DNA from: a virus
Taxonomy: Duplodnaviria > Caudoviricetes
DNA length: 64,000 nucleotides
Virus record (IMG/VR): IMGVR_UViG_3300013121_000027
Coordinates: 167,460-231,459 of that record
Direction: 5' to 3' (one strand)
Part shown: in pieces, positions 1-64,000 of the stretch
Position numbering within the stretch: the stretch's first letter is position 1
Layout: the number at the start of each line of letters is the position of its first letter
Notes under the pieces: generated by a model
What the model was told of the DNA's origin: nothing
Databases searched by the model: none
Seen by the model: only the letters and a program-made list of their open reading frames with translations
Position numbers and translations under genes: made by a program

Positions 1-3000
1 TTACAAATCTACCTTTTCTTGTTCCCCTAAAAAATGTTCGTATTTCGTCAAAACTTTCTATTCCGCGTAATTGAGCTATAGTTTTTGGTCGTTCAATCAA
101 TTCTCTTCGTGCTTCAGCAAGCATATCAATCATCGATCCGCCACCATCTAATCCCATATCTTCTAAGACGTTAAGGCTTATCTTGTTTTCTGCTGCTAAT
201 TTATCTATAGCTAAAATTTGTCTCTTTAATTTATGTGTTGGTATTAAGACGGTTTTATTCTTTTTGACAACCTTCTTAAAAAGCCCCATATCGTATAACT
301 TACGAACTGCTGCAGTATGAAGTTCATCTATACCACCGGCTAAAAATTCTTCTGCACTGTCAAACTGCTCCATACCATGAATGTTCCACCGTTTCGATAA
401 TTCTGCCTCAAATGATTTCATATCAGAAATAAATTTGGAAGCATTTACTTCCTCTTCAGTGGTAAATACTAACCCACTCAATGACTTAACACGCTCTTCA
501 AAAGCGGTTTCAATAACCGGTTTACCCATATCTGTAATATGCTCACCCAAAATAGCTTTACCTTTATAGAAGCCAGACATAGTACTTTCCTTGGTGACTT
601 CCGTAATAGATTTAATTTTCCTTTTGGCGCCAATTTGTTCATTATACGCTTGAATAAATCTTTGTTGAAACGGTTTTGACATTCTTGCCTGTGCCATAGC
701 GCTATCAAAGCCAATATTAAGTTGTTCTGCGCCTACTGGTAAACTCCTATTATATCTTTCGATTAAGGCTTGAGCTTTAGCAAATGCAGCGCCAAACTTT
801 CTTGGATTGTTGTGTAATATTTCCCTTTCCAAATCGTCAATAAGAAAAATATTACCTGTTTTTTTAATTTCGTCTACTGTGACTTCATACTCTACGAATT
901 GTTGTTTAGAGCTTTTTGCTATCTTAATAATTTGCGCTCTTAATTCTGGTGGAAGATTGCTATTATTTAATATATCATCCCAAGCATTGTCTAAAGCAAA
1001 CCTGGCATCAGTTAATTGTCCAAGAAGTCCATTAGCTCTGGCTTCTATTCCAAGTCTATCCTCTATAAGTTTATCTAATGTTTTGCCTCTGGTTAGTCGA
1101 TCTAATTCTGCTCTTTGTTCTCTGGATAAACTTGTAGCTTTAAATCTTGTATATAGGGCATCGTGCCACTCATCAGTTCCGGCAGAAATCTCAAAAGGAA
1201 AAGCTCCAGCATTGGCTCCAAGAGTCCTTTCCAGTTTTCTTTCTGAAACAATAGCGTTAGCAGCGGCGTTAGCTCGCTCCGTTGGAGTACCCCCACCAAA
1301 AGAACGACTTGTGTGGTACGAATGAGAAGCCGATGGCGTAGTATATCTATTCATAGATTCAACAGTTGTCCTCATACCTTTAGGACTTGTGTTTAGAGGC
1401 ATGGCGGGACTTCCATCAGCCAGAGGGGCAGCTGGAGAGAAAGTAGACGCTAAATCAATTTTAGCTATTCTCTTATTTCTCATCATTAAAAGGTGCAACT
1501 TGCTTCGGGTACTATCCAATTCAAAGGTTGCTGTTCTAATCTTTTGAGTCAATCTTTTATAAGTTTTTTCGTAATCTGGAAGCCTTGTATCTAATGCTTC
1601 TCGCTGTAAAAAAAGATTTTCTATTTCAGATGAAAGCTTTCGCTCTTCAACTGATAACTGTCTAACTTGATTATAATTTCCTCTTAAAATATCTTTTTTA
1701 CCAGATTTTGATATTTCAATATCGGGTTGATCAAAAATTCTTCTAAATGCTGAACTTTGATCTTCCGAAGTTAAATCAACATTATAATAACCAAACTCAC
1801 CCTTTTCGGTTGGATCTCTTATACCGAGAGCAAAAATGCGACGAGTTTTTTCATCATACTGCATGTGCCAAACGATACGATCGTCAAGGTCATGTCCACC
1901 GTGAAGCATACTGTGCGTTAAGAAAGATCCAGGATGTATGTGAGCAACGCCCTTCTCAAATCGAACCGTCCCAGGATCTACAAGATCTTTATTCGCCTCA
2001 GGAAAAACCGTTAAGTGAGTACCTACCGATCCCCTTATTGGGAAGTTCAGATTATAATTTGGAATTGACCTGCCACCTAATATTATTTGCTCATCATTTT
2101 TTACGGTTAAGAAATGATCTTGTACCGCATCTAATAATTGAGATGTTATTCGAGGGCTTTGATTTATATCTAAACCAGAATCCAAAGTTGTCTTTATCCT
2201 TTGGGCAAATGCTCTGGAACGCATTTTTTTTGCTATGACGGTTTCGTTATCCTCTGGTAAAATTTCCATTTCAGATAATTCATTAATGAGATTCCTTATT
2301 CCTGGAGTAATTTTTCCATTTTTGATATCGCTTATTAACTCATTGATAACGATTTTGGATTCGTTAACAAAGGAAAAATTATCCCCAAAAAGTCTACTGT
2401 GTGCGGATAAACTTAAAATGTTAGTTCTACCCTGTTTTGGTACTCCGTGACTTTCAAAAGATAAGAAGTAAGTTCCGCGTAATTCGCGTTTTTTATCTGC
2501 GCTGGAAACAAAAGCGTGTGTATTTGCAAATCTTTCCTTTGATAATCTAAAAATCTTCCTAAAAACTTCCTCATTCTCCTCCATAATAACACCGGCATCG
2601 CCTTTATAGTTAAAATCTTCGGACACCATTCGGATATTAACTCTTCCGGTAGAAAACATTGATTTTCTTTGTTTTGTAATTTCTTCTCTTATTGTTTTCG
2701 CTGTGGCAAGATGCTTTGCTCGTTCAGTCAATGGAAGTCTGGAGGCTTGTGCCTCTATCGAATTTGCTTCTTGTTCTAAATTAGAAAACATTTGTTCTAC
2801 AGTTCTTCTATTTAAAAGAACTTCACCATCGTACATTTTTTCAAATGCTGTCTTCCTACTTATTTTTTTTGTACCAGGTGCTGTACTCGCGATAAAAGAA
2901 TCAACCAATCTACCCGCGTCAGGGTTAAAAGCTTCAGCTACTCTTTTTGGATTAAAATGGTGCACGCTAATAGGCGTATCTGCCATAGAAAAAACCCGAT

Positions 3001-3595
3001 CAGATAAGAAAACGCTTAATCGCTTAGAGAGGCTATCGCTTTTCTCAAAAACGGTTGGGAAAGCATTATGATCAGATAGAACTTTCTGTACCTCCGCTAT
3101 TGTCAACCTTTTATTTCCAGAAGTAACATCTAAATGGACCAATTTTCCATTATTAAACCTTGGGACTCCATATATTTCTCCTGTAGGAGATTTTATTTCA
3201 CCTAAAACAGTTTCAGCAGTGTCTTTATTTAAATCCCAAGTTCTAACAGTTGGAGTATATCCTAATCTATCGAATAACATAGCCAATCTATTGGTGGCTG
3301 CTCCAACATATTCGTTTTCTAAAAGATTAGAAGAATACGTTCTTGTGCTTCTTAAAGGTCCTGATCGATAAAATACGTCGTGCCATTCTTCAAAGGACAT
3401 GGCTTTCTTACCAGTTGGACCAAAAGTAAATTTAATTTGATTACCATCTTGAACCAATTTGGTTTGCGGATAAAATTCTTCAAGAATTAAATCAACGGAG
3501 CGTTTAACATTTGAATCTGTAAAATATCTACGGATATTTGGGTGATAGATTAAATTCTTTAATCTTTCATCGTGTCTAAAATTAGGGATTGCCAT
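1..3595 (-). CDS. Single-chain RNA polymerase-like protein (RdRP/YonO-type double-psi beta-barrel), candidate virion RNAP; 3'-partial, >1198 aa
   Basis: Not in the ORF track. Hand translation from ATG 3595 (MAIPNFRHDERL...) is open to ~660 and presumably to the window edge. Motifs in order: SKRLSVF, MYDGEVLL, NIRMVSEDFNYKGDA, LHGGHDLDD (1880-1906), IRDPTEKGE, LLGQLTD, VTVDEIKKTG. These are collinear with the 60126-62816 protein. Confidence 0.8.
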   Translation of the reverse strand, partial: MAIPNFRHDERLKNLIYHPNIRRYFTDSNVKRSVDLILEEFYPQTKLVQDGNQIKFTFGPTGKKAMSFEEWHDVFYRSGPLRSTRTYSSNLLENEYVGAATNRLAMLFDRLGYTPTVRTWDLNKDTAETVLGEIKSPTGEIYGVPRFNNGKLVHLDVTSGNKRLTIAEVQKVLSDHNAFPTVFEKSDSLSKRLSVFLSDRVFSMADTPISVHHFNPKRVAEAFNPDAGRLVDSFIASTAPGTKKISRKTAFEKMYDGEVLLNRRTVEQMFSNLEQEANSIEAQASRLPLTERAKHLATAKTIREEITKQRKSMFSTGRVNIRMVSEDFNYKGDAGVIMEENEEVFRKIFRLSKERFANTHAFVSSADKKRELRGTYFLSFESHGVPKQGRTNILSLSAHSRLFGDNFSFVNESKIVINELISDIKNGKITPGIRNLINELSEMEILPEDNETVIAKKMRSRAFAQRIKTTLDSGLDINQSPRITSQLLDAVQDHFLTVKNDEQIILGGRSIPNYNLNFPIRGSVGTHLTVFPEANKDLVDPGTVRFEKGVAHIHPGSFLTHSMLHGGHDLDDRIVWHMQYDEKTRRIFALGIRDPTEKGEFGYYNVDLTSEDQSSAFRRIFDQPDIEISKSGKKDILRGNYNQVRQLSVEERKLSSEIENLFLQREALDTRLPDYEKTYKRLTQKIRTATFELDSTRSKLHLLMMRNKRIAKIDLASTFSPAAPLADGSPAMPLNTSPKGMRTTVESMNRYTTPSASHSYHTSRSFGGGTPTERANAAANAIVSERKLERTLGANAGAFPFEISAGTDEWHDALYTRFKATSLSREQRAELDRLTRGKTLDKLIEDRLGIEARANGLLGQLTDARFALDNAWDDILNNSNLPPELRAQIIKIAKSSKQQFVEYEVTVDEIKKTGNIFLIDDLEREILHNNPRKFGAAFAKAQALIERYNRSLPVGAEQLNIGFDSAMAQARMSKPFQQRFIQAYNEQIGAKRKIKSITEVTKESTMSGFYKGKAILGEHITDMGKPVIETAFEERVKSLSGLVFTTEEEVNASKFISDMKSFEAELSKRWNIHGMEQFDSAEEFLAGGIDELHTAAVRKLYDMGLFKKVVKKNKTVLIPTHKLKRQILAIDKLAAENKISLNVLEDMGLDGGGSMIDMLAEARRELIERPKTIAQLRGIESFDEIRTFFRGTRKGRFV

Positions 3596-50407: not shown

Positions 50408-50617
50408 TTAAAGACCGGTTCTTTGCCCGTGACGGTGAGAAGCGATTGTGCTTGAAACTACTATTGCACCGCCACCACCCAATACTCTTCTTCTACCTTT
50501 GGCTATTGCTCTTGGGTTTATAATGCCAAGTCTTCCACGCCCACCACCCATTTTACCAAAAAACTCAAGAGCGCTATCATTTTTTAACGCTCTGCTTATA
50601 GTCTTCATACCAAACAT
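50408..50617 (-). CDS. Small basic Gly/Arg-rich protein
   Basis: GAGGT RBS; TACTATA motif at 50662-50668. Confidence 0.5.
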   Translation of the reverse strand: MFGMKTISRALKNDSALEFFGKMGGGRGRLGIINPRAIAKGRRRVLGGGGAIVVSSTIASHRHGQRTGL

Positions 50618-51996
50618 TAGTAACTTACCTCAAATCGTTGTTCCTGAACAGTTATATTAAATATAGTACCTTTAGCTGGCTTACTCTTCAAAAGAATTTC
50701 TGCAAGGGGATTTTCTATCTCTTCACGACGAATCCTCGCCATGCCCCTGGCTCCCTCTATAGAGACACCAGATTTCTCGGAAAGCAGATTTACGACTTCA
50801 TCATCCCATCTTATATCTAAATTGCTTTTAATGAGTTTATTAGAAAGACTATTTAATTCCAAAACTGCAATTTTATTGTAGTCATAGGACATAAGATTAT
50901 TAAAGATGACTATTTCATCTAGTCTATTCAAGAATTCTGGTTTAAAGAATTTTCTAATAGCCTCATTTGTTTGTCTTTCAACCATTGCCCTCTTGGGAGC
51001 TTCCTTGGATTTAAAGCCATCACTTAGACTTGCAGTAAATCCTGATGATTTGCCAAATGTAGCTTCTGATATTTTGTCATTGCCAAGATTAGAAGTGATA
51101 ATAATTATTACATCTCTAAAAGAAACATTATTTCCGCGTCCATCTGTTATGTAGCCATCATCAAATACTTTTAGGAATGTGTTCCAAAAATCAGGATGCG
51201 CCTTTTCTGCCTCATCTAATAATAGCACAGTGCTTGGATTCTTCATAATAGAACGAGTGAGTTGCCCACCATCCTCATATCCAACAAAGCCATTTGGAGA
51301 ACCAATCAATTTTTGGTTCTCATGTTTATGTTGATACTCGCCACAATCAATACGAACCAATTCCTGATCCCCATACAAATACTTTTGTAGTTCTTTAGCA
51401 ACTAAAGTCTTTCCAACTCCAGAAGGTCCTGTAAAGAGAAAAACGCCTAATGGTCTATCTGGGTCATTAAGCTTCACATAAGCCCTCTTGAGAGCATTGG
51501 AGAGCCTTCTTATGGCTTCTGGCTGTCCTATTACCCTACTATTAAGATAATCCTCTAATTGGAGGAATTTATCACTCAAATTCGTATTAGCATTCTTCTT
51601 TTTACTTGCTCTTGGTTTAGGTTGAGTAAAAGTCTCTTCTTGCTGGTCAGCAGACGGATGAGGTTCTAATTCCTTCTTCTCTTCAGTTTTTTGAAAAACG
51701 TTATAAGATTGTGTTAATCCCATCCATGCATCTAAATCTAAAATAGGATTAAGCATGATGCAGCCGTTATAAAGAGATGTCAAAACCTCATCTGCTACCT
51801 GAGGAGATAATTTCTGCATGACAGCTTTTACTTCTGTCTTCAGATTAAAAATGCATTGATCTAAAGTTAAAAGGATATATTCCATTTTAGGAACATCAGA
51901 ATAGTTATCTACAAAAGCTTGGGCTTCTTGAACGGACAAGGCTCTAAACTTGGTAGACATTTCTAATGTGGGATAGTAGATCTCATATATCTTCAT
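50617..51996 (-). CDS. ClpA/ClpB-like AAA+ ATPase (second NBD only)
   Basis: RVIGQ, GPSGVGKT, LIGSP.G.VGYE.GG.LT, LLDEAEKAHP, FKPEFLNRLD and GAR. Confidence 0.9.
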   Translation of the reverse strand: MKIYEIYYPTLEMSTKFRALSVQEAQAFVDNYSDVPKMEYILLTLDQCIFNLKTEVKAVMQKLSPQVADEVLTSLYNGCIMLNPILDLDAWMGLTQSYNVFQKTEEKKELEPHPSADQQEETFTQPKPRASKKKNANTNLSDKFLQLEDYLNSRVIGQPEAIRRLSNALKRAYVKLNDPDRPLGVFLFTGPSGVGKTLVAKELQKYLYGDQELVRIDCGEYQHKHENQKLIGSPNGFVGYEDGGQLTRSIMKNPSTVLLLDEAEKAHPDFWNTFLKVFDDGYITDGRGNNVSFRDVIIIITSNLGNDKISEATFGKSSGFTASLSDGFKSKEAPKRAMVERQTNEAIRKFFKPEFLNRLDEIVIFNNLMSYDYNKIAVLELNSLSNKLIKSNLDIRWDDEVVNLLSEKSGVSIEGARGMARIRREEIENPLAEILLKSKPAKGTIFNITVQEQRFEVSY

Positions 51997-52283
51997 GGAT
52001 CCCGCTTTCAAAAAAACTTTATTCTTGTATTCATAGTACTTATGCTTTAGCGTTTAGGCATAGCACAAAAACCCCTCCCCTGCGACACCACCTTCGCAGG
52101 ACCAAACTTGGGGACAAGATATACGGAATTACACATTAAACACAATTGCTAATTAAGCCGTTTCCGGCGTTCCTTTCCGTAAAGGCTTCACTCAAGCAAC
52201 TTCATGCTTGTTAAGTTTCTCTACGAAGCTGGAATCGTACCGCTCCAGCACGGTTTTTGCAAAACGTATTATAACAGAAGGTA

Positions 52284-52637
52284 TTATCTCTTGTCTACCA
52301 CTTTATCAAAGATGACATGTGCCCATTCTGCAATGACATCTTCTTTGTTCTCTGTTTCGTCCTCAAGATAAAATTCTTTTTCCTCTATAGAACAATTATG
52401 TCTCATAGCTACTAAATTAGCTTGAGGAAGATTTTCTCTATGGATGACAACAGATAAATGATTTACGTGTTTTAGTTCTTCATCTATTCTTCCCATTTCC
52501 CATCCAGCCACGTATGCTCCGTCTTCAAATGATCCGCCGTTAGACTTAGTCGCAATAAACGGCATAATCAATTCATAATTAGATTCGGTCATTTCTATCT
52601 TCCTTGTCCTTATCCTTTTTGACATGATTTTCGACAA
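52284..52637 (-). CDS. Hypothetical protein
   Basis: ORF track; start uncertain. Confidence 0.5.
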   Translation of the reverse strand: MSKIMSKRIRTRKIEMTESNYELIMPFIATKSNGGSFEDGAYVAGWEMGRIDEELKHVNHLSVVIHRENLPQANLVAMRHNCSIEEKEFYLEDETENKEDVIAEWAHVIFDKVVDKR

Positions 52638-52709
52638 TAATTAATTCATCCTTTTTAGAAGGCAAAGGCATACCAAATGATATATGGTTTGGGAATTCTT
52701 CAACTAAAT

Positions 52710-52961
52710 TCATTTCTTACTTCCAAATGTATCTTTTTGAATCGCGCCCAATAACTTGAGCACAACTAACGATACACGCTGTCGTAAACTACGTGGTTTG
52801 TCAATAGTTGCTTGTGCGTGCGCGCAACACACCAACTCATATATCGGTGTATTGCCAACCATTGCGTCAAGTACTTGGTGAGTAGCGGGTATTTTACAGC
52901 CGGGAATGGTACAGTATGACTCCTGGTCCCAATCACATGGGGATATATCTTGTTTAGTCAT
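52710..52961 (-). CDS. Hypothetical Cys-rich protein
   Basis: ORF track. Confidence 0.5.
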   Translation of the reverse strand: MTKQDISPCDWDQESYCTIPGCKIPATHQVLDAMVGNTPIYELVCCAHAQATIDKPRSLRQRVSLVVLKLLGAIQKDTFGSKK

Positions 52962-52964
52962 TCT

Positions 52965-53399
52965 TTAACCCCTTTTTCTAATAATTCCATCATCATCATC
53001 ATCTTTACAAAACTCAAAGTTGGACTTAGGATCTAGTAATCTATTCCTTGTCGTAGCCCCTTTGGCGGATGGCTGATTTTCAGATTTTATCTCATAGAGA
53101 GCAAACGGATACGGAGAACTATGCTTCACATAACCAGAATCACCAAACGGTGCTGCTGTGCCAAGAACAATTTCCGCACAATCCCAATACCCTCTCTTAC
53201 TAACCGCAATTAATCCCGCCCCACAAATACATCTATCAAATGCTGAATAGATATGATTTGAGCTTTCGTGTTCGACTTCCTTTTTGATTATAGCAAGGCG
53301 TCGATGATTTACAAAATTTTCAACTTTTTGCCAAAACCTTTTCCTCAATCCCATAGACCTGCTCTCCAATCTGTATATAATCTTTCTATCCTCGGACAA
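52965..53399 (-). CDS. Hypothetical protein
   Basis: RCICGAGL...YWDC...YEIKSE; start uncertain. Confidence 0.5.
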   Translation of the reverse strand: MSEDRKIIYRLESRSMGLRKRFWQKVENFVNHRRLAIIKKEVEHESSNHIYSAFDRCICGAGLIAVSKRGYWDCAEIVLGTAAPFGDSGYVKHSSPYPFALYEIKSENQPSAKGATTRNRLLDPKSNFEFCKDDDDDGIIRKRG

Positions 53400-53574
53400 T
53401 CAGTCTGTCGAGTCTTAAAAATCCCCCAAAACCTTACTAAATCATTCACGGTATTGATTTGGTTTTCCAACATCCATAGTGCTGGTCCTAAGTCTTGTTC
53501 TATGAGAGGATTTTTCATGAAATTTCTTTTCTTTAGTGTTGCAAATTTTCAACTTTCATAGTATATTTTATCAC

Positions 53575-53808
53575 ATGACCACTTCAAATACCACTGGTAC
53601 TGTAAGCGCCAGCACCGCTGCCAGAAAACTGTCTCGTCTGAATACCCTCACTGAGTTCGTTGAAAAAGTAGATGTTGCTATTCTTGGTGAAGAGCCTCAA
53701 ATGCGCAAGGAACTTCAACGAGTTAGAAAACTTGCTATTGATGAAATGCGTACTCTTCGTATTGAATTAGATAAAATAGCTCATCAAAAAAACGAAAATA
53801 TGGTATAA
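53575..53808 (+). CDS. Hypothetical helical protein
   Basis: First plus-strand ORF, upstream of recA; probable start MTTSN. Confidence 0.5.
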   Translation: MTTSNTTGTVSASTAARKLSRLNTLTEFVEKVDVAILGEEPQMRKELQRVRKLAIDEMRTLRIELDKIAHQKNENMV

Positions 53809-53819
53809 TAGTAGTTATT

Positions 53820-54812
53820 ATGAAAGACATTGACACACAAGCATTACATTTAGCTATTGCTAAGTTAGATAAAGAATTTGGCAAAAATACTGTTATTTTT
53901 GGCAATGCATTACCTGATAAGGTTGATGTTGTTCCTACTGGTAATTTTAAGTTAGACTTGGCATTAGGTGTTGGGGGATTTCCAAAAGGTCGTATTATTG
54001 AATTATTTGGTGCAGAGGCTTTGGGAAAATCACTATTATCTCTCTCAGCAGTTGCTGAATGTCAAGCTATGGGTGGTTTAGCGGCATACTTGGATGTTGA
54101 ATGTGATTTAGATCCAGATTGGGCAACTAAGTTAGGGGTTAATCTTGATGATTTGGTTTTGGCGCAACCTGAATATGGGGAGCAGACCTTTACAATACTG
54201 CATGACCTTATTAAGACTAATCTTTTTGATTTAATTGTGGTGGATTCTGTTGCTGCTATGACGCCTAAAGCAGAGCTTGAAGGTGAAATGGAGGACCAAC
54301 AAGTTGGTGCACAGGCACGTATGATGGCTAAGGGTTTGCGGAAAACTCGACATGCAGTCTTAGAGGCTAAGACTTGTGTTATCTTTATTAACCAAATTAG
54401 AGATAAAATAGGATTTATGCAGACTGGTACCACTTCACCTGGTGGTAGAGCATTGAAATTTGCAGCTTCTGTGAGAATCGAATTGAAACGTATGGGAGAT
54501 GCGAAAAATTCTAAGCAAGAAGTGGTTGGAACTAAGGTTAAGGCTTTAATTCTTAAAAATAAGGTAGCAAGACCAATGAGAGCCTTAGAGTTTGATGTTT
54601 TGCATGGTGTGGGATTTTCTAATTTTGGAATGATCTTGGATTTAGCTGAGAAACATGGGTTAATAAATAAAAAGGGTGGCGGTTATTACTATAAGATAGG
54701 AGAAGATAAGTCCTTTGCTCAAGGCGAAGCTGCTGCTATTGAATATCTTGCTTCCGATTTAGAGTGGGTTGAAGAACTTAAGAAAAATATAACAGAGAAA
54801 GAACTAGCATGA
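53820..54812 (+). CDS. recA: RecA recombinase
   Basis: LDLALGVGGFPKGRIIE, VVDSVAA, GAQARMM, FINQIRDKIG, PGGRALKF and KNKVA. Walker A is the variant GAEALGKS. TGGTATAAT extended -10 at 53801-53809. Confidence 0.97.
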   Translation: MKDIDTQALHLAIAKLDKEFGKNTVIFGNALPDKVDVVPTGNFKLDLALGVGGFPKGRIIELFGAEALGKSLLSLSAVAECQAMGGLAAYLDVECDLDPDWATKLGVNLDDLVLAQPEYGEQTFTILHDLIKTNLFDLIVVDSVAAMTPKAELEGEMEDQQVGAQARMMAKGLRKTRHAVLEAKTCVIFINQIRDKIGFMQTGTTSPGGRALKFAASVRIELKRMGDAKNSKQEVVGTKVKALILKNKVARPMRALEFDVLHGVGFSNFGMILDLAEKHGLINKKGGGYYYKIGEDKSFAQGEAAAIEYLASDLEWVEELKKNITEKELA

Positions 54813-54914
54813 TAAGTGAGGAAACTTGTCCGTACTGTGATTCTTGGAATATAAGGATTGCGGAAACTTGTTTTTGTAGGGATTGCGGAGAAAAATGGAG
54901 AGAGGGGGTCTCTG

Positions 54915-55460
54915 ATGAGAAAACAAGTGATTCATTATGGGACTTCAACGAACAACTCCGTCTTGACTACTCCGACGAAACTAGTTGAATTCTTAGATAA
55001 ACGTATTCATCTACAGATACAACAGCTACACGATGTATTTACGCATTGCGGAAAATCAGCTGTTGGTCTTGCGTCGAATCAAATAGGTAATGATAGCAGA
55101 ATATTCATCTATTTTGATGAACAGACGTCTACAAATAAAATTGTGATCAATCCTATGATAGTTTTTGGGAATGATGAGGTCATAGAAATGGAAGGATGTC
55201 TATCCTTTCCTAATATGTGGACTCCTGTGAAGAGATTTAAAGAAATTCAAGTGACATATGTGGATTTTCTTAGTTTAGAAGATAAAATAATAGAGGTAAA
55301 TGGCTTCAAATCAAGATTGTTTCAGCATGAAATAGAACACTTGATGGGAGAACTGTTTATTCAAAATCTCTCCGGAGAGGAAAAAGATGAATTCTTGGCT
55401 CGATATGCACGAATTAATAGACTTACCAAGGATAACGCAAGACGATATCGTTCCAGATGA
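54915..55460 (+). CDS. def: Peptide deformylase
   Basis: VGLASNQIG, EGCLS and QHEIEHL.G motifs. Confidence 0.92.
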   Translation: MRKQVIHYGTSTNNSVLTTPTKLVEFLDKRIHLQIQQLHDVFTHCGKSAVGLASNQIGNDSRIFIYFDEQTSTNKIVINPMIVFGNDEVIEMEGCLSFPNMWTPVKRFKEIQVTYVDFLSLEDKIIEVNGFKSRLFQHEIEHLMGELFIQNLSGEEKDEFLARYARINRLTKDNARRYRSR

Positions 55461-55709: not shown

Positions 55710-55748
55710 AAGGACCATCTTAGAGTAAAATCTAAGGTGGTCTTTTTT
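55710..55748 (+). terminator. Intrinsic terminator
   Basis: AAGGACCATCTTAGA-GTAAAA-TCTAAGGTGGTCTT followed by a T run. Confidence 0.85.
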
Positions 55749-55987: not shown

Positions 55988-56683
55988 ATGTTTAAGGCAT
56001 TCATCATTGCACTGATGGCATCACTCACCATCAACGTACACACGGCTACCGCTACTGAGCAGTATGACCTGTGTGATCTGACCGTGGTGTTGGGGGATTC
56101 ACTGATCTCCCGCTCACCCATCGTGTATGCGGAGGCATTCGCCAACTTGGGGATTGATGCATTGATCCTCAGTGGTGCAGGTCGGGCGATTGATTTCCCT
56201 GATGTGCAGAACGACAACACCATCACCTGGGTGAAGGATGGACACATTGGTACATTGGTGTCCTACAATACTCACATGAGCGGTATCGAGTCGGTTGAGT
56301 TCGCTCGCCGTGCATACCCGAACAAGGATTTGTGCTGGGTTGTTGCACTTGGTACCAATGATGCAGCACACCTGCCCGAGTCGTGGTGGGATGCAGATAT
56401 CGACAAGATGACCACTGCATTGGGTGGCGATCTGGCGTTGTGGATCCCCATCTACATGGACAGCAAGGAGTGGGACGGTTACACTCCTGAGGTAGCAGAA
56501 GCATGGCATACTCGTTTCTACTACAACCATGACATCATGGCGATCTCATTGTGGGATGAATTCGCCAGCGCCAACGCAGAAGCTGTCCTGTCTGATGATG
56601 GTGTGCACTTGACCGAGTATGGTTCGTGGGCGCGTGCGCTGTACATCGCCAGCGGTACCACCGGTTGGTACAACATCGACTGA
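55988..56683 (+). CDS. Secreted SGNH/GDSL hydrolase-family protein
   Basis: Signal peptide; blocks LGDSL, G, LGTND and DGVHL. Confidence 0.85.
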   Translation: MFKAFIIALMASLTINVHTATATEQYDLCDLTVVLGDSLISRSPIVYAEAFANLGIDALILSGAGRAIDFPDVQNDNTITWVKDGHIGTLVSYNTHMSGIESVEFARRAYPNKDLCWVVALGTNDAAHLPESWWDADIDKMTTALGGDLALWIPIYMDSKEWDGYTPEVAEAWHTRFYYNHDIMAISLWDEFASANAEAVLSDDGVHLTEYGSWARALYIASGTTGWYNID

Positions 56684-56772
56684 TATATGTACCCACTGCG
56701 TACAAGATGTAACCCGGCTTGTACGTAGTGATGTATGTGTATTGGACACATGCAAAAATAGGAGGAAAAGCA

Positions 56773-57024
56773 ATGACACAGCACACGTATGCTGTAGTGT
56801 TGGTTACCCTGCTCATAGTGGGTGGTGGTGTAGGCACGTTGGTGTGCACGTACATCATCATGCGCCCCATCATGGCTGCACGTAGGGCGGCGCGGTTGGA
56901 GGCATGGGAGCGTCAGGCTCGCCTCATCCGTATCGTGCAGGCGTACCAGGATGACCTGCAGTACAGGAAGGCACGTTGCAAAGAATTGGCTGAACAAGTT
57001 GCTCGTATGGAGCGTGTGAAGTAG
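56773..57024 (+). CDS. Small membrane protein
   Basis: GGAGG RBS; N-terminal TM helix followed by a coiled coil. Confidence 0.65.
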   Translation: MTQHTYAVVLVTLLIVGGGVGTLVCTYIIMRPIMAARRAARLEAWERQARLIRIVQAYQDDLQYRKARCKELAEQVARMERVK

Positions 57025-57030
57025 TAATAC

Positions 57031-57085
57031 TACCCTTACCCTACAATGGTGTAGGTACATACAGGTTCGATTCCTGGTAAGGGTA
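57031..57085 (+). ncRNA. tRNA-like element lacking an anticodon arm (copy 1)
   Basis: TACCCTTAC/GTAAGGGTA stem, CCTAC-AATGGT-GTAGG arm, CAGG-TTCGATT-CCTG T-arm. Confidence 0.6.
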
Positions 57086-57135
57086 CTGCAGTTTGTATGT
57101 TCTGCCGGAAAAACATATAAAGGAGAGTAAGTGTC

Positions 57136-57303
57136 ATGTTGTTCTTCATTGCAACTTGTGACACCTGCGGAATGGACGTGTATGTTCGCGTCCTCGATGC
57201 TGACAAGGAGCATGCTCTGAGCCACGGTACCGTTCTGTGCGAGAACGAGTTGAAGTGGCGCTGGTACACCGTACCCGCCGACGTCAAGTACGTCCGGAAG
57301 TAA
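57136..57303 (+). CDS. Small CxxC protein (55 aa)
   Basis: AAGGAG RBS; hand-translated MLFFIATCDTCG... Confidence 0.65.
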   Translation: MLFFIATCDTCGMDVYVRVLDADKEHALSHGTVLCENELKWRWYTVPADVKYVRK

Positions 57304-57312
57304 TAAGAGGTA

Positions 57313-57361
57313 GCCCTTCCCCAGTGGTGGGTAGACACATGGTTCGACTCCATGGTGGGGC
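57313..57361 (+). ncRNA. tRNA-like element lacking an anticodon arm (copy 2)
   Basis: GCCCTTC/GTGGGGC stem, CCC-AGTGGT-GGG arm, CATGG-TTCGACT-CCATG T-arm. Confidence 0.6.
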
Positions 57362-57404
57362 ACAGCGTCTTGCGTATACGCACAAATACGCTAAAGGAGA
57401 GATC

Positions 57405-57563
57405 ATGGCTTACACCTTCACTCCTACTGATCCCGAGCCCGTGTACGAAGAAGAGAAGAGCTTCGTCGTGCAGGTTTGCCGTGGCTCGGGCAAGTCGGGT
57501 CGAGTGGACTTCACTATGCGTGAGGTCTTGAAGTCGATGAAGAACGCTCCTACCAGCAAGTGA
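57405..57563 (+). CDS. Small hypothetical protein (52 aa)
   Basis: AAGGAG RBS; MAYTFTP... Confidence 0.65.
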   Translation: MAYTFTPTDPEPVYEEEKSFVVQVCRGSGKSGRVDFTMREVLKSMKNAPTSK

Positions 57564-57689
57564 TCTGGTAAGAGTAGGTTTTGCGGGATTTCCTGAAACT
57601 GAATAATCCCGTCCCCTTCATTATATTCATTTATGGTGGAGGGACTGCGTTTAACGTCTACGCTCAAAGACGTAAAAGGAGAAAAGGAA

Positions 57690-57947
57690 ATGTTGCGTTT
57701 CCAGCACCCGTACGGCGGCATCTGCACCGTCATCGGTGAATTCACCCCGCAGGAAATCATGGACTGGCTGATCAAGAGCCAGATCCCGGCGATGTACCTC
57801 TGCGCCCTGCAGGACGGCATGCGCTACAACCTGACCGACCCGTTCGGGATGAAGATCCTCGACATCATCGAGAAGGACCGCGAGATCCTGGTCTACAGCC
57901 AGGGCAAGGGCAACCCCATGGTGCGCTTGGAGGTGATCAACAAGTAG
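57690..57947 (+). CDS. Small hypothetical protein (85 aa)
   Basis: AAGGAG RBS; GC3-rich codons. Confidence 0.7.
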   Translation: MLRFQHPYGGICTVIGEFTPQEIMDWLIKSQIPAMYLCALQDGMRYNLTDPFGMKILDIIEKDREILVYSQGKGNPMVRLEVINK

Positions 57948-57953
57948 AGAGGG

Positions 57954-58010
57954 AAAAACTGAGAGTGAGGGGATTGGCGAAATTCGTCAGTCCCTTCCTC
58001 TGAGCTTTTT
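57954..58010 (+). repeat. Intergenic long-hairpin repeat, copy 1
   Basis: GAGAGTGAGGGGAT...TCCCTTCCTCTGAGCTT is shared with 58409-58466. Confidence 0.75.
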
Positions 58011-58110
58011 GCTCATGACGTGTCCATAGCGTCATAAAATAAGTATGGAAAGACCCTGCTCACAGCGCGGCAGTAACTTAGTGCTGTACTGTTCTAATGG
58101 AGGAACAGTC

Positions 58111-58413
58111 ATGTCGAAGAACCAGAACACCAACGGTCAGCAGAAGTCCTCCAAGGGCGGCTGCAAGAAGCACATGTCGGGCAACCGTAAGAGCGACGTC
58201 GCCAAGGCGGGCAAGCGCTCCCGCAACCGTGGCGAGAACCAGGGCAAGAACCACGTCACCACGACGGAGTTCCTGGTCCGTCAGGGCATGGGCAAGACCG
58301 TCAACATGATGCCGGTGGTCCAGCAGCACACGATCCCGCAGGAGCTCATCAAGGTCATGCACATCGAGACCGAGATCGCCCGCAAGGTCAACGCGTCCTG
58401 GCTGAACAGCTGA
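58111..58413 (+). CDS. Basic hypothetical protein (100 aa)
   Basis: GGAGG RBS; Lys/Arg-rich N-half. Confidence 0.7.
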   Translation: MSKNQNTNGQQKSSKGGCKKHMSGNRKSDVAKAGKRSRNRGENQGKNHVTTTEFLVRQGMGKTVNMMPVVQQHTIPQELIKVMHIETEIARKVNASWLNS

Positions 58414-58466
58414 TCAGTTGAGAGTGAGGGGATGGTGCGATCATCCCTTCCTCTGAGCTTATCAGC
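58409..58466 (+). repeat. Intergenic long-hairpin repeat, copy 2
   Basis: Same flanks as copy 1, with a different but fully paired apical stem. Confidence 0.75.
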
Positions 58467-58497
58467 CCGATAGCTCAACATGATTCAAAGGAGGATC

Positions 58498-58632
58498 ATG
58501 GACAGGAATGGAAAGACAACTGTTGCCGAATTGGCAGCAATGATGAAGATGACGCGTGAGGTGCAGCTGTTGCAGATCGCAAGGATCAGGCAGTTCATCG
58601 AGACCATCAACCAGAGAGGAGCAAGGTCATGA
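58498..58632 (+). CDS. Small protein (44 aa), possible HTH fragment
   Basis: AAGGAGG RBS; TVAELAAMMKMTRE; ATGA coupling to the next gene. Confidence 0.55.
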   Translation: MDRNGKTTVAELAAMMKMTREVQLLQIARIRQFIETINQRGARS

Positions 58633-59234
58633 GGTGCTCAGCTATGATCAAAAAGCCTGGTGATGAGTTCTATCACCAGTGTCCGAAGAGTGCGACGAGG
58701 TTTGGGTTTTGCGGAACCCACCTCATGAACTGGGAGCCCCCAGTGAAGACACCGCGTAACGTGCCCAGCTACACGGTCTGTCGTCCACCACGTAGACTCA
58801 CGTTCCGACTGATTCCCGAGTCGAAGATCGTGCGTCACAGTTGGTGGTTGCGTCAAGAGATCGTCACGGCGGCGGCGCGCTGTGTCGAAATGAAGCGCAA
58901 CCATGGCATCGACTGGCACAACTACGAGGTGGCGACTCGTAAGCGTGAGGCAGAATTGCAGAGGTTGAGGGAGGCAAACACCATCCACTGCAAGGAATGT
59001 GGTGAACTCCTCACCGAAGGCGCTTCTGCCATGCGTGATCGGTACATCACGCCGCGTCAGCACTACTTCATCGTGCGACTGGTGAATTCTCGCCAGTTAG
59101 ATGTTGATCGCAAGATGTTGATCATGGAGCGTCTGGCTACCCACGATCGTCTGTGGGCACTCAAGGCGATCCATCAGCTGCTGAAGCACACACCAGTCAT
59201 CGATACCTTCGAGTTGGAGGCTGAGCCCTTCTGA
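58629..59234 (+). CDS. Hypothetical protein with Cys/His Zn-binding motifs
   Basis: C...C...FCGTH and HCKECG. Confidence 0.65.
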   Translation: MRCSAMIKKPGDEFYHQCPKSATRFGFCGTHLMNWEPPVKTPRNVPSYTVCRPPRRLTFRLIPESKIVRHSWWLRQEIVTAAARCVEMKRNHGIDWHNYEVATRKREAELQRLREANTIHCKECGELLTEGASAMRDRYITPRQHYFIVRLVNSRQLDVDRKMLIMERLATHDRLWALKAIHQLLKHTPVIDTFELEAEPF

Positions 59235-59329
59235 CATGAAGGCACTGAGAGTGGATAGTGCGATTATCCACTCAATTGTGTTTTTGTGCAATCCCGCATG
59301 AGACACACATCCATAAGGAGGGATGTAAA

Positions 59330-60001
59330 ATGAAGTGTGGTATCAAAGTCAACAACCGTCAGTGCAAGAACAACGTCGTAAGCGGTCTGACCATCGGAGT
59401 CCTCGATTCCGTGGTGTACTGCTGCAGCAGCCACTACAAGAAGTACGCCAATGTGGACGCCATCAACGTCCCGGTGTACACCAGCACCAAGAAGGTCACC
59501 CCCAAGGAGGAGATCATGAACAAGGAAGATATGCCGTTCCACGGACACTGCGACTGTGGTGGCTGCACGACTGTAGCCGAAGCGGAAGCCTGCCACGCTG
59601 AAATGGTTGCGAGAGTCGAAGAAGAAATCAACACCACCACCAAGAAGGAGGAGACCATGAAGACCGACATCGGCATCTTCACCATCAACTACCACGAGAA
59701 GGGGACGGTCAAGTGCATCAAGTGCAGCAAGGAACTGCCCATCAGTGATCCCGAGGGCAACTGGGAGCGTGGTGCGTTCCACTCCATCGAGGATCTGCGC
59801 AAGTGCCTCGGTGCTGCTCCTGCACCCGCCAACCCCCACAACGCGCTCATCAACGAGTGGGAAGCCAAGGACGGGACCAAGATGGTGAGTGAGTGGTACG
59901 CCAACGCCCACCTCGCCAACAAGCGCTGCCTGGAACTCCGCAAGGGCTATGTCAAGCCTGCGAAGAAGGGCAACGGTCACTGGGTGCACTACGCCAAGTG
60001 A
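59330..60001 (+). CDS. Modular Zn-finger protein (223 aa)
   Basis: AAGGAGG RBS; three Cys/His clusters. Confidence 0.7.
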   Translation: MKCGIKVNNRQCKNNVVSGLTIGVLDSVVYCCSSHYKKYANVDAINVPVYTSTKKVTPKEEIMNKEDMPFHGHCDCGGCTTVAEAEACHAEMVARVEEEINTTTKKEETMKTDIGIFTINYHEKGTVKCIKCSKELPISDPEGNWERGAFHSIEDLRKCLGAAPAPANPHNALINEWEAKDGTKMVSEWYANAHLANKRCLELRKGYVKPAKKGNGHWVHYAK

Positions 60002-60125
60002 TTCAGCCGTGCTGAGCATCACGCAAAAAGGCTTCGGGTGTTGCGTAAGTGGGAATTCGCAGCCCACCACCCGCTATATTCACATAATCCCGTGTGGATA
60101 TAAGACAAGATTCATAGGAGGAATC

Positions 60126-62816
60126 ATGTCAACGCAAGTACAACTCCGTAATGGTCGGTGGCTTGAAGCTACCGCACTGCCTGGAGATTTGTTTGAGGCA
60201 ATTCTCGCTTCAGGCAAGAGCAAGATCTATCCCATGAGCGAGCTTCGTGCTGTGCTCACGGATGGACAGGAAGAGGTCATCCCCAACAAGAAGGAGGAGA
60301 AGATGACCAACTACATCAACCACTACCTGCACAGGTTGGCGTTCACGGATGATGATGGTGAGCAGTTCGCTGCCATCGTCCGTGCTCTGACCAGCAATGT
60401 GCCTGATGCCACCAAGGCTGACTACCTGGCGTCAGTCGAGAGCAAGACTGTGGTGAACAACGTCCTCGCCCTCAATTCGGGCAACTGGATGTTCCACCTG
60501 CTCAAGGCTCGTCTGGAGCAGTGCCACGTGAACTTCAAGACCTGGGTGATCAAGCTCAGGACTCAGGATGACGTGTATGGCTTGGACAACATGTCCGCTG
60601 CCAAGCGTCAGGAACTCATCGATGGTTCTACGTTCTGCTACGCCAACGCGGATTACGCCTTCTTCTTCAAGGTGGAAGGTGTTCCCGAGTTCGGTCTGCA
60701 CCTGATGGGACTGAACATCACCCATGCCAAGAAGAGTGCCAAGCGCCTGCAGGAGCTGTTCCGTCAGGTGGAGGCATTTCTGCATCTGGAGGGTGAGGAT
60801 CAGAAGAGTCTGACGTGGGATTTCAATCCGCGTCTGGACCTGGCTGGTGATGAGGTCAAGCGCTATGACGGCAAGACTTACATCCGTCAGTCCTTCGCCC
60901 TGCGCATGGCTGAGAACATCAGCGATCTCATCCGCCGGGCGAGCGTCATCAGGGCGATCCGGTCGCGCAAGTTGGTTCACATCACCATCCGCATCCTGAC
61001 TCCTCAAGGTCTGCTCAAGGGCGATGCTGTCATCGTTCCTGACAACCAGATCAGTGCGGACATCTCCACTGTGAGCGAAAATGTCAAGGGTGAGCTGTTC
61101 ACCAATGACTTCACTTTCGCCTGCATGTGGGAGCATGCCATGGTGCACAACGCGGTGTGGGACGACCAGAGTGCGATCAACTTTGGTTATGCCCTCTCCG
61201 AGCAGGCTCAGATCAGCGACATCATCCGTCTGGTGGAGAATCTTCGCAATGCCATCCAGACAGGTGAGCTCCCTGAGTGGCTGCTCCTCGGTGAAGATGG
61301 ACACGGTGATGATGGGCTGCCCAGCGTTGAGAAGCTGAGCGACACCATCAACAAGAGCTGGGTCCGCTTCCAGGCGTTCGGGTTGGACATCAAGGCAGCA
61401 CAGAATCTGCTGTACATGGCGCTCAACGGCGTCATCCTGCGCATGATCCGCGCTGGTATGACAAAGGAAGGGTTCTACCGCAAGATGTGGATCCCCATGA
61501 CCAATGCGTGTTTGCTCACGATCAACACATGGGAATCGGCTACCCGCGTTGGAGGGTTCAACTTCCATGGTCGCAACAAGAACATCGCGTTCTACGATCC
61601 TCGTTGCGGCTTCGTGATCAGCAGCCAGCGCTTCATCGAGACCTACCATCTCCATGGTGGTTGGGATCTGGATGACAGTGTGAAGGTCATCTTGGTGAAG
61701 GTGTTCTGCAGTGATGCGGAAATCCTGACCCAGCATGTCCACAAGACTGTCCCTGGTGAGATCGAGTACCCCACCAGTGCCGACGATGCCAAGTTGATGG
61801 TGCTGTTGGTCCGTTCTCCCAACGGTCCGGGCGAATGGAGCATCGAGGAGTGCGATATCACCTCCCTGCCCATCCCGCAGGACTTCCGTCATGACGACAT
61901 CACGGTTATCGACATCGCCAAGATGCCGTTGCCTCAGGATGTCATGCTGGCGCAGGTTGGTCCGATCGCAGGATTCACCTCCAACATGAAGTACACTGGT
62001 CTTGAAATGACCAGGGCTGAAGGTGAACTCATGGTCAATGCTCAGATGTCCAACCCCGGTGTTGGTGAGTACTGCAACGGGATGATGTGGTGGGCATTGA
62101 TCAAGCCTGGTTCCTTCCCGCCCATCATGAATGCCAAGATGGAGGAAGTGGTGGACACCAGTCAGCAGGAGCATGATGCAGTGAAGTTCGCTGCCATCAA
62201 GGCTGAGACTGATCTCATCATCAAGCAGGCTCTTGCCACCAATCTGCCCGTCGATGCAGCGTTTGCATCCACCAGGATGTCCTTCACGAACATGATGAAG
62301 GTCCGACTGGTCAAGGGTCGTTTCTACCGTGTCCAGCACGAGTACAAGAAGGCGATCGAGACCATGCGGACTGAACTCCGTGACCACACGCTGCAGATGC
62401 GTGCTGCGGATCCGACGGTCCAGGCTGTCAAGCACATGCGGTTCGGTGACGAGTTGTTCCAGTGGGCTGAGCACTTCTATGTGTCCAACTCGCAGGCAAT
62501 GACCAGCACCGATCGTGCGTACGAAGTCAGCCCCAAGGACCATCCGTTCCACAAGATGGAGATGGCTCGCCTGCACAAGGAAGCAATGGAAGAGATCGTG
62601 GCTTCCATGGTCAAGGAACTGGATGATTTCGGTGACGAAACCAACAACCATGTCCTGGCGCTGTGGAAGTACATCAACCACTCCACCCGTCGCTTCCCCA
62701 TGGGTGTCTCGGATCGCATCGTCTTCCACCCCAACAAGACGGGTGAGCGGTCGGTCATGGACGTCCTCATCGAGGCGCTGCTGGCTGTCAACCTGGCGGT
62801 CAAGCCCAGTAAGTGA
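60126..62816 (+). CDS. Single-chain RNA polymerase-like protein (RdRP/YonO-type), candidate non-virion RNAP (896 aa)
   Basis: AGGAGG RBS at ATG 60126. Motifs in order: AKRLQELF, RYDGKTYI, TIRILTPQGLLKGDA, LHGGWDLDD (61650-61676), VRSPNGPGE, GVGEYCN, EEVVD. Confidence 0.8.
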   Translation: MSTQVQLRNGRWLEATALPGDLFEAILASGKSKIYPMSELRAVLTDGQEEVIPNKKEEKMTNYINHYLHRLAFTDDDGEQFAAIVRALTSNVPDATKADYLASVESKTVVNNVLALNSGNWMFHLLKARLEQCHVNFKTWVIKLRTQDDVYGLDNMSAAKRQELIDGSTFCYANADYAFFFKVEGVPEFGLHLMGLNITHAKKSAKRLQELFRQVEAFLHLEGEDQKSLTWDFNPRLDLAGDEVKRYDGKTYIRQSFALRMAENISDLIRRASVIRAIRSRKLVHITIRILTPQGLLKGDAVIVPDNQISADISTVSENVKGELFTNDFTFACMWEHAMVHNAVWDDQSAINFGYALSEQAQISDIIRLVENLRNAIQTGELPEWLLLGEDGHGDDGLPSVEKLSDTINKSWVRFQAFGLDIKAAQNLLYMALNGVILRMIRAGMTKEGFYRKMWIPMTNACLLTINTWESATRVGGFNFHGRNKNIAFYDPRCGFVISSQRFIETYHLHGGWDLDDSVKVILVKVFCSDAEILTQHVHKTVPGEIEYPTSADDAKLMVLLVRSPNGPGEWSIEECDITSLPIPQDFRHDDITVIDIAKMPLPQDVMLAQVGPIAGFTSNMKYTGLEMTRAEGELMVNAQMSNPGVGEYCNGMMWWALIKPGSFPPIMNAKMEEVVDTSQQEHDAVKFAAIKAETDLIIKQALATNLPVDAAFASTRMSFTNMMKVRLVKGRFYRVQHEYKKAIETMRTELRDHTLQMRAADPTVQAVKHMRFGDELFQWAEHFYVSNSQAMTSTDRAYEVSPKDHPFHKMEMARLHKEAMEEIVASMVKELDDFGDETNNHVLALWKYINHSTRRFPMGVSDRIVFHPNKTGERSVMDVLIEALLAVNLAVKPSK

Positions 62817-62826
62817 CAATCGGATT

Positions 62827-62870
62827 AGGGGTGTATATATGGTTTCGGCTGTGTATACACCCCTTTTCCC
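62827..62870 (+). terminator. 17-bp hairpin (terminator or processing site) after the RNAP gene
   Basis: AGGGGTGTATATATGGT-TTCG-GCTGTGTATACACCCCT followed by TTT. Confidence 0.65.
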
Positions 62871-62913
62871 TCGTTTTTCGCAATACACACACTCAAACAC
62901 AAGGAGCAATGTC

Positions 62914-63405
62914 ATGCAATACGTAACTGTCCCCGCAATTGGTTCATCGAAGTACAACGCTGTTTGCATGCCCAACGGCGTGATCGCAGTCACATACGGA
63001 CTCAAGAATCTGCTCACCGAGGAAGAGCTGGAAGCTGTTCTCCTTCACGAGAAGGGGCACAAGGAAGGAGAGGATGCCCAGATCACAATGATCATCGCGT
63101 GCATCATGACCATCCTCTGGGTGATCGTGCTCAAGAAGAAGGGCTACAAGAAGAGCATCATGTTCAATTATCTCGGCATGATCCCAACAGCCTTCCTCAA
63201 CTGGGGCATGGAACTCAATGCCGACGCCTATGTAGTGGCTCACGGCAATGGAGAAGACCTCATTTCCGCCCTTGAGAAGATCGATGCAGCCAACCACATG
63301 AATGTATGGTGGAAGCAGGCAATCGGAAGTCTCAAGCACCCGCCGACAACCTTGAGGGCAATGCACATCCGCGAAGAAATCGCATCACTGAATGGAGGTA
63401 AGTGA
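62914..63405 (+). CDS. M48/HtpX-like membrane zinc metalloprotease
   Basis: NA..., ELEAVLLHEKGH, TM segments, ELNAD and HPP...R. Confidence 0.85.
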   Translation: MQYVTVPAIGSSKYNAVCMPNGVIAVTYGLKNLLTEEELEAVLLHEKGHKEGEDAQITMIIACIMTILWVIVLKKKGYKKSIMFNYLGMIPTAFLNWGMELNADAYVVAHGNGEDLISALEKIDAANHMNVWWKQAIGSLKHPPTTLRAMHIREEIASLNGGK

Positions 63406-63406
63406 A

Positions 63407-63868
63407 ATGACTAACAAGAGAGCACAACGCAAAGCGGAAAAGCTGGTTGAGTGGTTCCTCACCCAGATTCCAGAAGGAGAAGGTTGGTGGATCTATATCG
63501 GTGGTCCAATCGCCAACGCTCTCACTGACAAGAAGGCAGCAGTTGCTTTCTGCGAGACTGAGCTCTTGATTCTGGATGGGCAATTTGTCCATGCCATGAA
63601 GGGCACTGTGCTGGTGCATGGTGGATTGTGCGAACATTTCCCCTACAAGGAGATGCAAGCATGTATACTCCATGAGATTGGTCATCTTCTCTATGGTAAG
63701 TCAGAGAGGGACGCTGATCAGCATGTAGTCGATAGCGGTATGGGTAATGAGATGGCGGATTTTCTCGACAGACTCTTCACCATCGTCCCCATCGACATGG
63801 CTGTGTACGAAAAGGATTACGGCATCCACGAAGTTCGTATTGCCCATTTGAGAGGAGGAAAGTCATGA
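63407..63868 (+). CDS. Second M48-like zinc metalloprotease (soluble)
   Basis: ILHEIGH, ERDAD and a C-terminal R. Confidence 0.75.
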   Translation: MTNKRAQRKAEKLVEWFLTQIPEGEGWWIYIGGPIANALTDKKAAVAFCETELLILDGQFVHAMKGTVLVHGGLCEHFPYKEMQACILHEIGHLLYGKSERDADQHVVDSGMGNEMADFLDRLFTIVPIDMAVYEKDYGIHEVRIAHLRGGKS

Positions 63869-64000
63869 AGAAGATCATGGGTACTGGGTCACGCTCAATG
63901 GTGACTCATCCAGATGCCAAGATCATCTACGCCAATCTGGAAGCCAAGATTCTCCAGATAGCGGAAAAGGAAGAAGTCATGCTGATCACAGGCATGGCTG
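63865..64000 (+). CDS. SLOG/YspA-like protein, 3'-partial
   Basis: KIMGTGSR...LITGMA; GAGGAGG RBS. Confidence 0.5.
   Translation, partial: MKKIMGTGSRSMVTHPDAKIIYANLEAKILQIAEKEEVMLITGMA

Follow-up and report, generated by a model that had tools for sequence, protein, structure and literature searches.

A metagenomic phage protein family with RxP downstream of the catalytic aspartate loop: predicted two-barrel RNA polymerases with a probably rearranged barrel

Introduction

In the catalytic double-psi barrel of cellular-type RNA polymerases, an RxP motif placed before DxDxD is treated as an invariant hallmark and is used as a search filter (PMC10770324, PMC2919709). R446 and P448 of Rpb1 are among eight universal residues (PMC2919709), and Chaban et al. 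listed viral two-barrel polymerases with the filter [RK]xPx{20,100}DxDxD (PMC10770324). Gene C of an uncultured phage (IMG/VR record IMGVR_UViG_3300013121_000027) carries both motifs in the opposite order. This raises the question of what kind of protein it encodes and how its catalytic barrel might be built. The window analyzed here is the final 64 kb of this 231,459-bp viral contig, which has a 141-bp end repeat.

60126..62816, plus strand: gene C, a two-barrel polymerase-like protein of 896 aa in a single chain; start codon ATG at 60126, preceded at 6 nt by AGGAGG

A longer frame beginning with a GTG at 59889 is unsupported, because homologs of gene C align from residue 1.

Order of the motifs in gene C and its relatives

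The translation of gene C contains H510-G-G-W-D514-L-D516-D517 (nt 61653-61676), and LLVRSPNGPGEW comes 46 residues after this HGGWDLDD loop. The segment V562-R563-S-P565-N-G-P-G-E570-W, preceded by LL in the protein, is encoded by nt 61809-61838. The phage carries three paralogs, A (873 aa), B (1470 aa) and C, which share only 22-23% identity. In paralog B, HGGHDLDD is followed after 19 residues by GIRDPTEKGE, and in paralog A, encoded outside the window (genome 33951-36572), HGGPDLDD is followed after 18 residues by VLVRSPNDLGE. The first-pass annotation, made from the letters alone, had noted D-L-D-D with a downstream RxP..GE in the two paralogs of the window; the translations of C (61650-61850) and B bear this out, and the third paralog behaves likewise. 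It was also right about the canonical order, as all eight reference polymerases (YonO and five relatives, P23-45 gp64 and P23-45 gp96) have RxP 38 to 52 residues upstream of DxDxD.

The annotation had further suggested a survey of metagenomes with a hidden Markov model (HMM). Our profile search of 1.84 billion representatives recovered 550 clusters at E<=1e-3 and 439 at E<=1e-10, all of them unnamed. A word-based search of metagenomic proteins gave 46 relatives of C and 61 of A. Since a second such search, based on a 79-sequence alignment, returned just 15 proteins, the family alignment could not be deepened much. An IMG/VR profile scan with A2 found 5 loci, and BFVD holds two family members, both labelled "uncharacterized protein, uncultured Caudovirales phage."

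DxDD followed by RxP was found in 224 of 227 aligned family members, with a spacing of 18 to 63 residues (modes at 18, 23 and 46). In the HMM alignment of relatives, the Asp loop is essentially fixed (D514, 172/172; D516, 172/172; D517, 171/172), and so is the downstream motif (R563, 173/175; P565, 175/175; N566, 156/175; G569, 164/175; E570, 158/175). R563 and P565 are the sole invariant Arg and Pro of the catalytic domain. K453 and P457 are nearly invariant, and further downstream G647 is invariant and N651 nearly so. The recurrence of these motifs and of their order in three paralogs and their relatives is far beyond chance. It had been argued beforehand that conservation speaks against decay, and the invariance of the catalytic residues in more than 170 diverged sequences agrees with this.

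The literal DxDxD signature is absent as a rule: the loop is DxDD in 224/227 members, the third Asp lying one residue earlier than in the canonical loop. Nor is there an upstream [RK]xP, as the invariant R563-x-P565 sits 18 to 63 residues downstream of the Asp loop. The pattern [RK]xPx{20,100}DxDxD occurs anywhere in only 14 of 238 family members, versus all 8 reference enzymes with an Asp loop. Two metagenomic relatives, P0100 and P0127, carry a canonical HGGWDQDGD at the same site, with RNP..GE still downstream. Because of these two proteins, we regard DxDD and the canonical loop as homologous, DxDD being a one-residue slide of the third Asp. Thus, the "non-canonical loop" of the first-pass annotation is real as DLDD but is a small variation rather than a different loop, and the hallmark of the family is the reversed motif order rather than DxDD. 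P0100 and P0127 are naturally occurring intermediates of the two loop types.

Paralogs C, A and B have no match in Pfam or in the PDB (phmmer and family profile), PHROGs gave nothing relevant for C and B, and tblastn of the paralogs against 50,697 GenBank phage records gave no match. A Pfam scan of 149 domain sequences at E<=10 found no RNA-dependent RNA polymerase (RdRP) or RNA polymerase family, including PF05183, the Pfam family of YonO and the eukaryotic RNAi polymerases. A described family with the reversed motif order was not found in Pfam, PHROGs, PDB sequences, GenBank phages or a limited literature search. Judged from these comparisons, the gene C family is a distinct, large, unnamed family of two-barrel polymerase-like proteins, known only from metagenomes.

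Predicted fold of gene C

At the level of fold, gene C belongs to the two-barrel (double-psi beta-barrel) polymerase superfamily, on the basis of an overall fold match and a normal first barrel. The model has two barrels facing one cleft and can be aligned to solved two-barrel polymerases, the closest of which, in the structural comparison, are QDE-1 and RDR2. The beta-type barrel has a standard topology and supplies two conserved basic residues.

60126..60287, plus strand: N-terminal small beta-barrel, aa 1-54, SH3/KOW/Tudor-like
60765..61142, plus strand: first barrel, aa 214-339, standard double-psi; DG (248-249), R289, K298-G-D300 and K321

As a normal double-psi barrel, the first barrel would contribute its conserved Lys residues to the active site. 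Gene C very probably encodes an RNA polymerase of the cellular "two-barrel" type.

Proposed chain path of the catalytic barrel

The catalytic domain (residues 443-612) was folded alone with 149 sequences and gave a predicted local distance difference test score (pLDDT) of 95.3. Its elements, in full-length numbering, are as follows.

61494..61529, plus strand: P457-M-T-N-A and strand s1 (461-468), assigned as beta1 from the structural alignment and the mutual information ladder; helix hA (469-475) follows
61587..61655, plus strand: hairpin s2-s3 (488-498; s2 488-491, s3 495-498) and helix hB (500-510), as defined by DSSP in both models; tentatively beta2, beta5 and alpha2
61653..61676, plus strand: metal-binding loop H510-GGWDLDD-517 (Asp loop 511-517), from the translation and its conserved Asp residues
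61677..61706, plus strand: strand s4 (518-527), assigned as beta6 from its position after the Asp loop, like beta6 in canonical enzymes
61707..61790, plus strand: subfamily insertion (528-555) with helix 531-537, missing in short-spacing members including paralogs A and B (alignment and spacing modes)
61791..61853, plus strand: strand s5 (556-562), ending in RSP, R563-S-P565-N-G-P-G-E570 with its loop NGPGE, and s6 (about 571-576); proposed relocated beta3-RxP-beta4 hairpin; s7 (593-596) follows
62052..62078, plus strand: N643-P-G-V-G-E-Y-C-N651, collinear with YonO INIGEYSN 3' of the Asp loop (YonO-like alignment, hhalign)

In the predicted structure, only some 15 residues, without real strands, separate helix 426-441 from s1. 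Because of this, beta1 to beta3 cannot fit upstream of s1. In agreement with the assignment of s1 as beta1, six polymerases align from the start of their own beta1 to model residue 12-15; the VIA rows have noise-level Z scores, so that they carry weight only through their mutual consistency. The catalytic domain aligned with no standard barrel.

We then considered the neighbors of each strand. Plain mutual information with average product correction (MI-APC) was computed on 225 sequences after taking out invariant columns, and the coevolution signal is shallow and weak. It contains an antiparallel s1-s4 ladder (459/460-524/525, 463-520 and 465-518; z 4.0-4.7), s4-s5 pairs (519/521-561 and 523-559; z 3.2-3.4), an s5-s6 pair (559-576; z 5.3) and s1-s3 pairs (460-495 and 465-493; z 3.5-3.7). 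Entropy-normalised ladder scores were inflated by near-invariant columns and were replaced by this measure, and mean-field direct-coupling analysis was set aside because gap and indel covariation dominated it.

Castillo et al. (1999) reportedly described the neighbor ring of the double-psi barrel as 1-5-2-4-3-6, with strand 1 parallel to 5 and strand 2 parallel to 4. By this arrangement, the antiparallel neighbors of beta6 are beta1 and beta3, beta4 is the partner of beta3, and beta5 that of beta2. The ring is consistent with PMC11258233, according to which a barrel with beta2 and beta2' inverted has antiparallel strands throughout. With s4 taken as beta6, the neighbor chain s1-s4-s5-s6 would map onto beta1-beta6-beta3-beta4. 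A mirror mapping of the strands was rejected, as it would require s5 to be parallel to s6, which is impossible for an 8-residue hairpin.

Taken together, the motif spacing, the weak coevolution, the secondary structure and the range-only structural alignments lead us to favor, with moderate confidence, a model in which the beta3-RxP-beta4 hairpin now follows beta6, having left its original place ahead of the Asp loop. The canonical chain order, beta1, beta2, [beta3-RxP-beta4], beta5, alpha2, Asp loop, beta6, would become beta1, beta2, beta5, alpha2, Asp loop (GGxDxDD), beta6, [beta3-RxP-x4-E-beta4]. The barrel would keep its canonical spatial parts, visited by the chain in another sequence, and R563 would be placed next to the Asp loop, where the Arg of every other two-barrel polymerase lies. 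Since beta2/beta5 and beta6/beta3 are antiparallel neighbors in the double-psi barrel, the new joins can be plain hairpins; under this mapping, the short s2-s3 link, and likewise s4-s5 where the motif spacing is short, would connect strands that are antiparallel-adjacent in the canonical barrel. The distance from beta2 to beta5 is about 50 residues in YonO-like proteins versus 3 in the gene C family, and the distance from the Asp loop to GEYxN is about 50 residues longer in the gene C family than in YonO-like proteins.

Tblastn found no similarity between the paralogs and YonO, and hhalign against six YonO-like sequences reached E values of 0.02-0.03 only. Its best linear alignment (E 0.025) paired the RSP blocks and the GEYxN motifs and left the Asp loops unaligned; an alternative pairing s1-hA with YonO beta5-alpha2 was set aside as pseudo-symmetry or noise. 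Short segment HMMs matched the canonical RxP in only 2 of the eight canonical polymerases, with negative scores. The idea of a GD box, in which PGE would mirror the GD of DxDGD, was abandoned, as the two positions are not symmetry-related.

Several observations fit a circular permutation, in which the barrel halves are swapped or the barrel is cut before beta3, the RSP strand takes the beta1 position, RSPNGPGE forms the psi-turn to beta2, and R563, as a new Arg, approaches the site across beta6 from its opposite side. The segments s2-s3-hB-loop-s4 and s5-loop-s6-helical turns-s7 read as beta-beta-alpha-beta twice, and the MI pairs 499-576, 495-568 and 498-567 bring s3 near the RSP loop and s6. 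A permutation of this kind could arise by simple genetic steps, a tandem duplication and then trimming, and canonical beta1 likewise ends in a Pro motif (LLSPKIL in gp64). We nevertheless find it unlikely, as the domain has no standard-barrel match, s1 aligns to beta1 of six enzymes, and s5 contacts s6. The first-pass annotation had proposed a rearranged or permuted barrel defining a distinct family; the distinct, large family holds up, and a rearrangement is likely, with hairpin relocation favored over circular permutation.

The fold could also belong to a protein other than the DNA-dependent transcriptase of the phage, such as an RNA-dependent polymerase, a PolD-like DNA polymerase or primase, or a structural relic that has lost its activity. 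The nearest solved relatives, QDE-1 and RDR2, are indeed RNA-dependent, and the Asp loop departs from DxDxD. This is improbable, however, since the characterized phage members of the clade, YonO, crAss gp66 and P23-45 gp64 and gp96, are all DNA-dependent (PMC5467207, PMC10770324). The residue invariance described above argues against a relic, and A-type and C-type paralogs are kept together in related contigs. In addition, the whole phage genome has no other recognizable RNA polymerase, with no match to Rpb1 domain 2, T7-type RNA polymerase or PF05183 (PF00623, PF00940 and PF05183; the threshold for PF05183 was E<=10, and the same HMM does detect its match in Bacillus subtilis).

In beta' and Rpb1, an S-P-x-x-G/N-x-P segment lies about 28 residues after the Asp loop. 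Very unlikely, finally, is a standard barrel order with RSP..GE as an extra element after the barrel, like SPANGEP after NADFDGD in bacterial beta', and an upstream basic residue such as K453 in the role of the canonical Arg. In its favor, K453 and P457 are nearly invariant, and the profile of the b1 segment reached RAPMTN of a phage c-st protein, with a negative score. Against it, the 15 or so strandless residues before s1 leave beta1 to beta3 no space upstream, the domain has no invariant Arg or Pro other than R563 and P565, and no standard barrel aligns with it. Neither of the two outcomes that the first-pass annotation had itself named as speaking against its proposal was seen: upstream of the Asp loop there is no space for strands or another invariant Arg, and no described family with this motif order was found in the databases and papers covered.

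Genomic context

Paralog B lies among structural genes, the minus strand of the window carrying terminase, portal, sheath and fibre genes, and it adjoins a 2158-aa protein.

2..3595, minus strand: paralog B, 1470 aa in full, running off the window start; tail and virion module; HGGHDLDD at nt 1900-1880
50617-55460: genes before C, in order ClpX-like (minus strand), UvsX/RecA-like (plus strand) and peptide deformylase (plus strand)
55710-55745, plus strand: strong terminator-like hairpin, 15-bp stem then T-run, between the deformylase gene and the GC-rich block
62515-63405, plus strand: M48-type metallopeptidase domain (Pfam E 1.7e-12), directly 3' of C

The true start of the M48 gene is probably later, because the listed GTG open reading frame (ORF) overlaps the 3' end of C.

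Gene C is located in a GC-rich block of about 12 kb, which extends from window 56,000-64,000 over the end repeat to genome 1-4,000 and has 50-60% GC versus 38% for the genome. GC content at third codon positions is 74% in gene C, 39% in paralog A and 25.5% in paralog B. The gene order is conserved in relatives (contig L019, 2188-10760): ClpX-like ATPase (minus strand), UvsX/RecA-like (plus strand), deformylase (plus strand), small ORFs, a C-type polymerase and many small ORFs. On this related 167-kb contig, the block of the C-type gene has 52-56% GC versus 37-41% in its flanks. A chimeric assembly was rejected as the source of the block, as both synteny and GC shift recur in related contigs; because L019 shows the same shift, we regard it as a conserved feature of the gene block and not as a chimera or a recent transfer. 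Host codon-use tuning before the phage tRNAs are made, or a template property for the first polymerase, are possible explanations. Near the contig start, the 12- to 14-mer GGAAAAAGAGGGGA is repeated 7 to 9 times on one strand (genome 725-13,250 and 28,066, plus strand) and resembles an early promoter element or a ribosome-binding site.

A-type and C-type genes occur together on one related contig of 155,733 bp (P0032 and P0209), and A-type genes are also present on contigs of 224-237 kb (P0195, P0200 and P0213). This co-occurrence, together with the A-type genes on other large contigs, indicates that the paralogs are old and have been retained together in a large-phage lineage. By analogy with P23-45 (PMC10770324), we infer a division of labor in which B would travel in the virion and transcribe the first genes, C, from the GC-rich block of small genes, would be made early and take over after B, and A would serve another gene class.

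Discussion

If the proposed chain path is true, the most conserved polymerase core would have a naturally occurring topological variant in the gene C family. Such a large family, with the residues retained but their order reversed, would indicate that this core tolerates rewiring, which bears on the origin of the barrel from hairpin-sized pieces. Because of the reversed order, motif-based searches for two-barrel polymerases would miss the gene C family, and surveys reporting "no RNA polymerase" in large phages may overlook one. We tentatively propose, at slightly under even odds, a phage RNA polymerase clade of at least 550 clusters, missed by signature-based surveys, with a non-circularly rearranged catalytic barrel, and a 150-240-kb lineage with up to three paralogs, one likely virion-borne and two not, for host-independent transcription. 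The family offers compact single-chain polymerases of about 870-900 aa for biochemistry, and the three-paralog phage a system for studying the temporal relay of polymerases.

With respect to known systems, QDE-1 (PDB 2J7N, 7Y7P-T) and RDR2 (7W82, 7W84, 7EU1) have RxP before the Asp loop and a DxDGD loop, whereas gene C has RxP after it and DxDD. They show no match to gene C at the sequence level (PF05183 at E<=10; PDB profile search). Since its host is a phage, unlike for QDE-1 and RDR2, the template of gene C is probably DNA. In the Thermus phage P23-45, gp64 (non-virion) and gp96 (tail-tape-fused, virion) show the canonical RxP then DxDGD (PDB 8F72, 8F5M, 8H2M); in contrast, the phage described here has three paralogs, and B, at 1470 aa, is a protein of its own without a tape-measure fusion. 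The crAss-like phage phi14:2 provides a virion-packaged two-barrel polymerase with a non-standard Asp loop (gp66, DFDID; PDB 6VR4). YonO of the Bacillus prophage SPbeta and YonO-like phage enzymes are, like gene C, phage-encoded single-chain two-barrel proteins. In YonO, RSP lies 43 residues before DNDGD, the reverse of gene C, but YonO RSPHLFRE and gene C RSPNGPGE share the same R-x-P-x4-E spacing, and both groups have a helix between beta1 and beta2 and GEYxN after the Asp loop. Overall, the best explanation of gene C is a predicted single-chain two-barrel polymerase, most likely DNA-dependent, of the QDE-1/RDR2/YonO clade.
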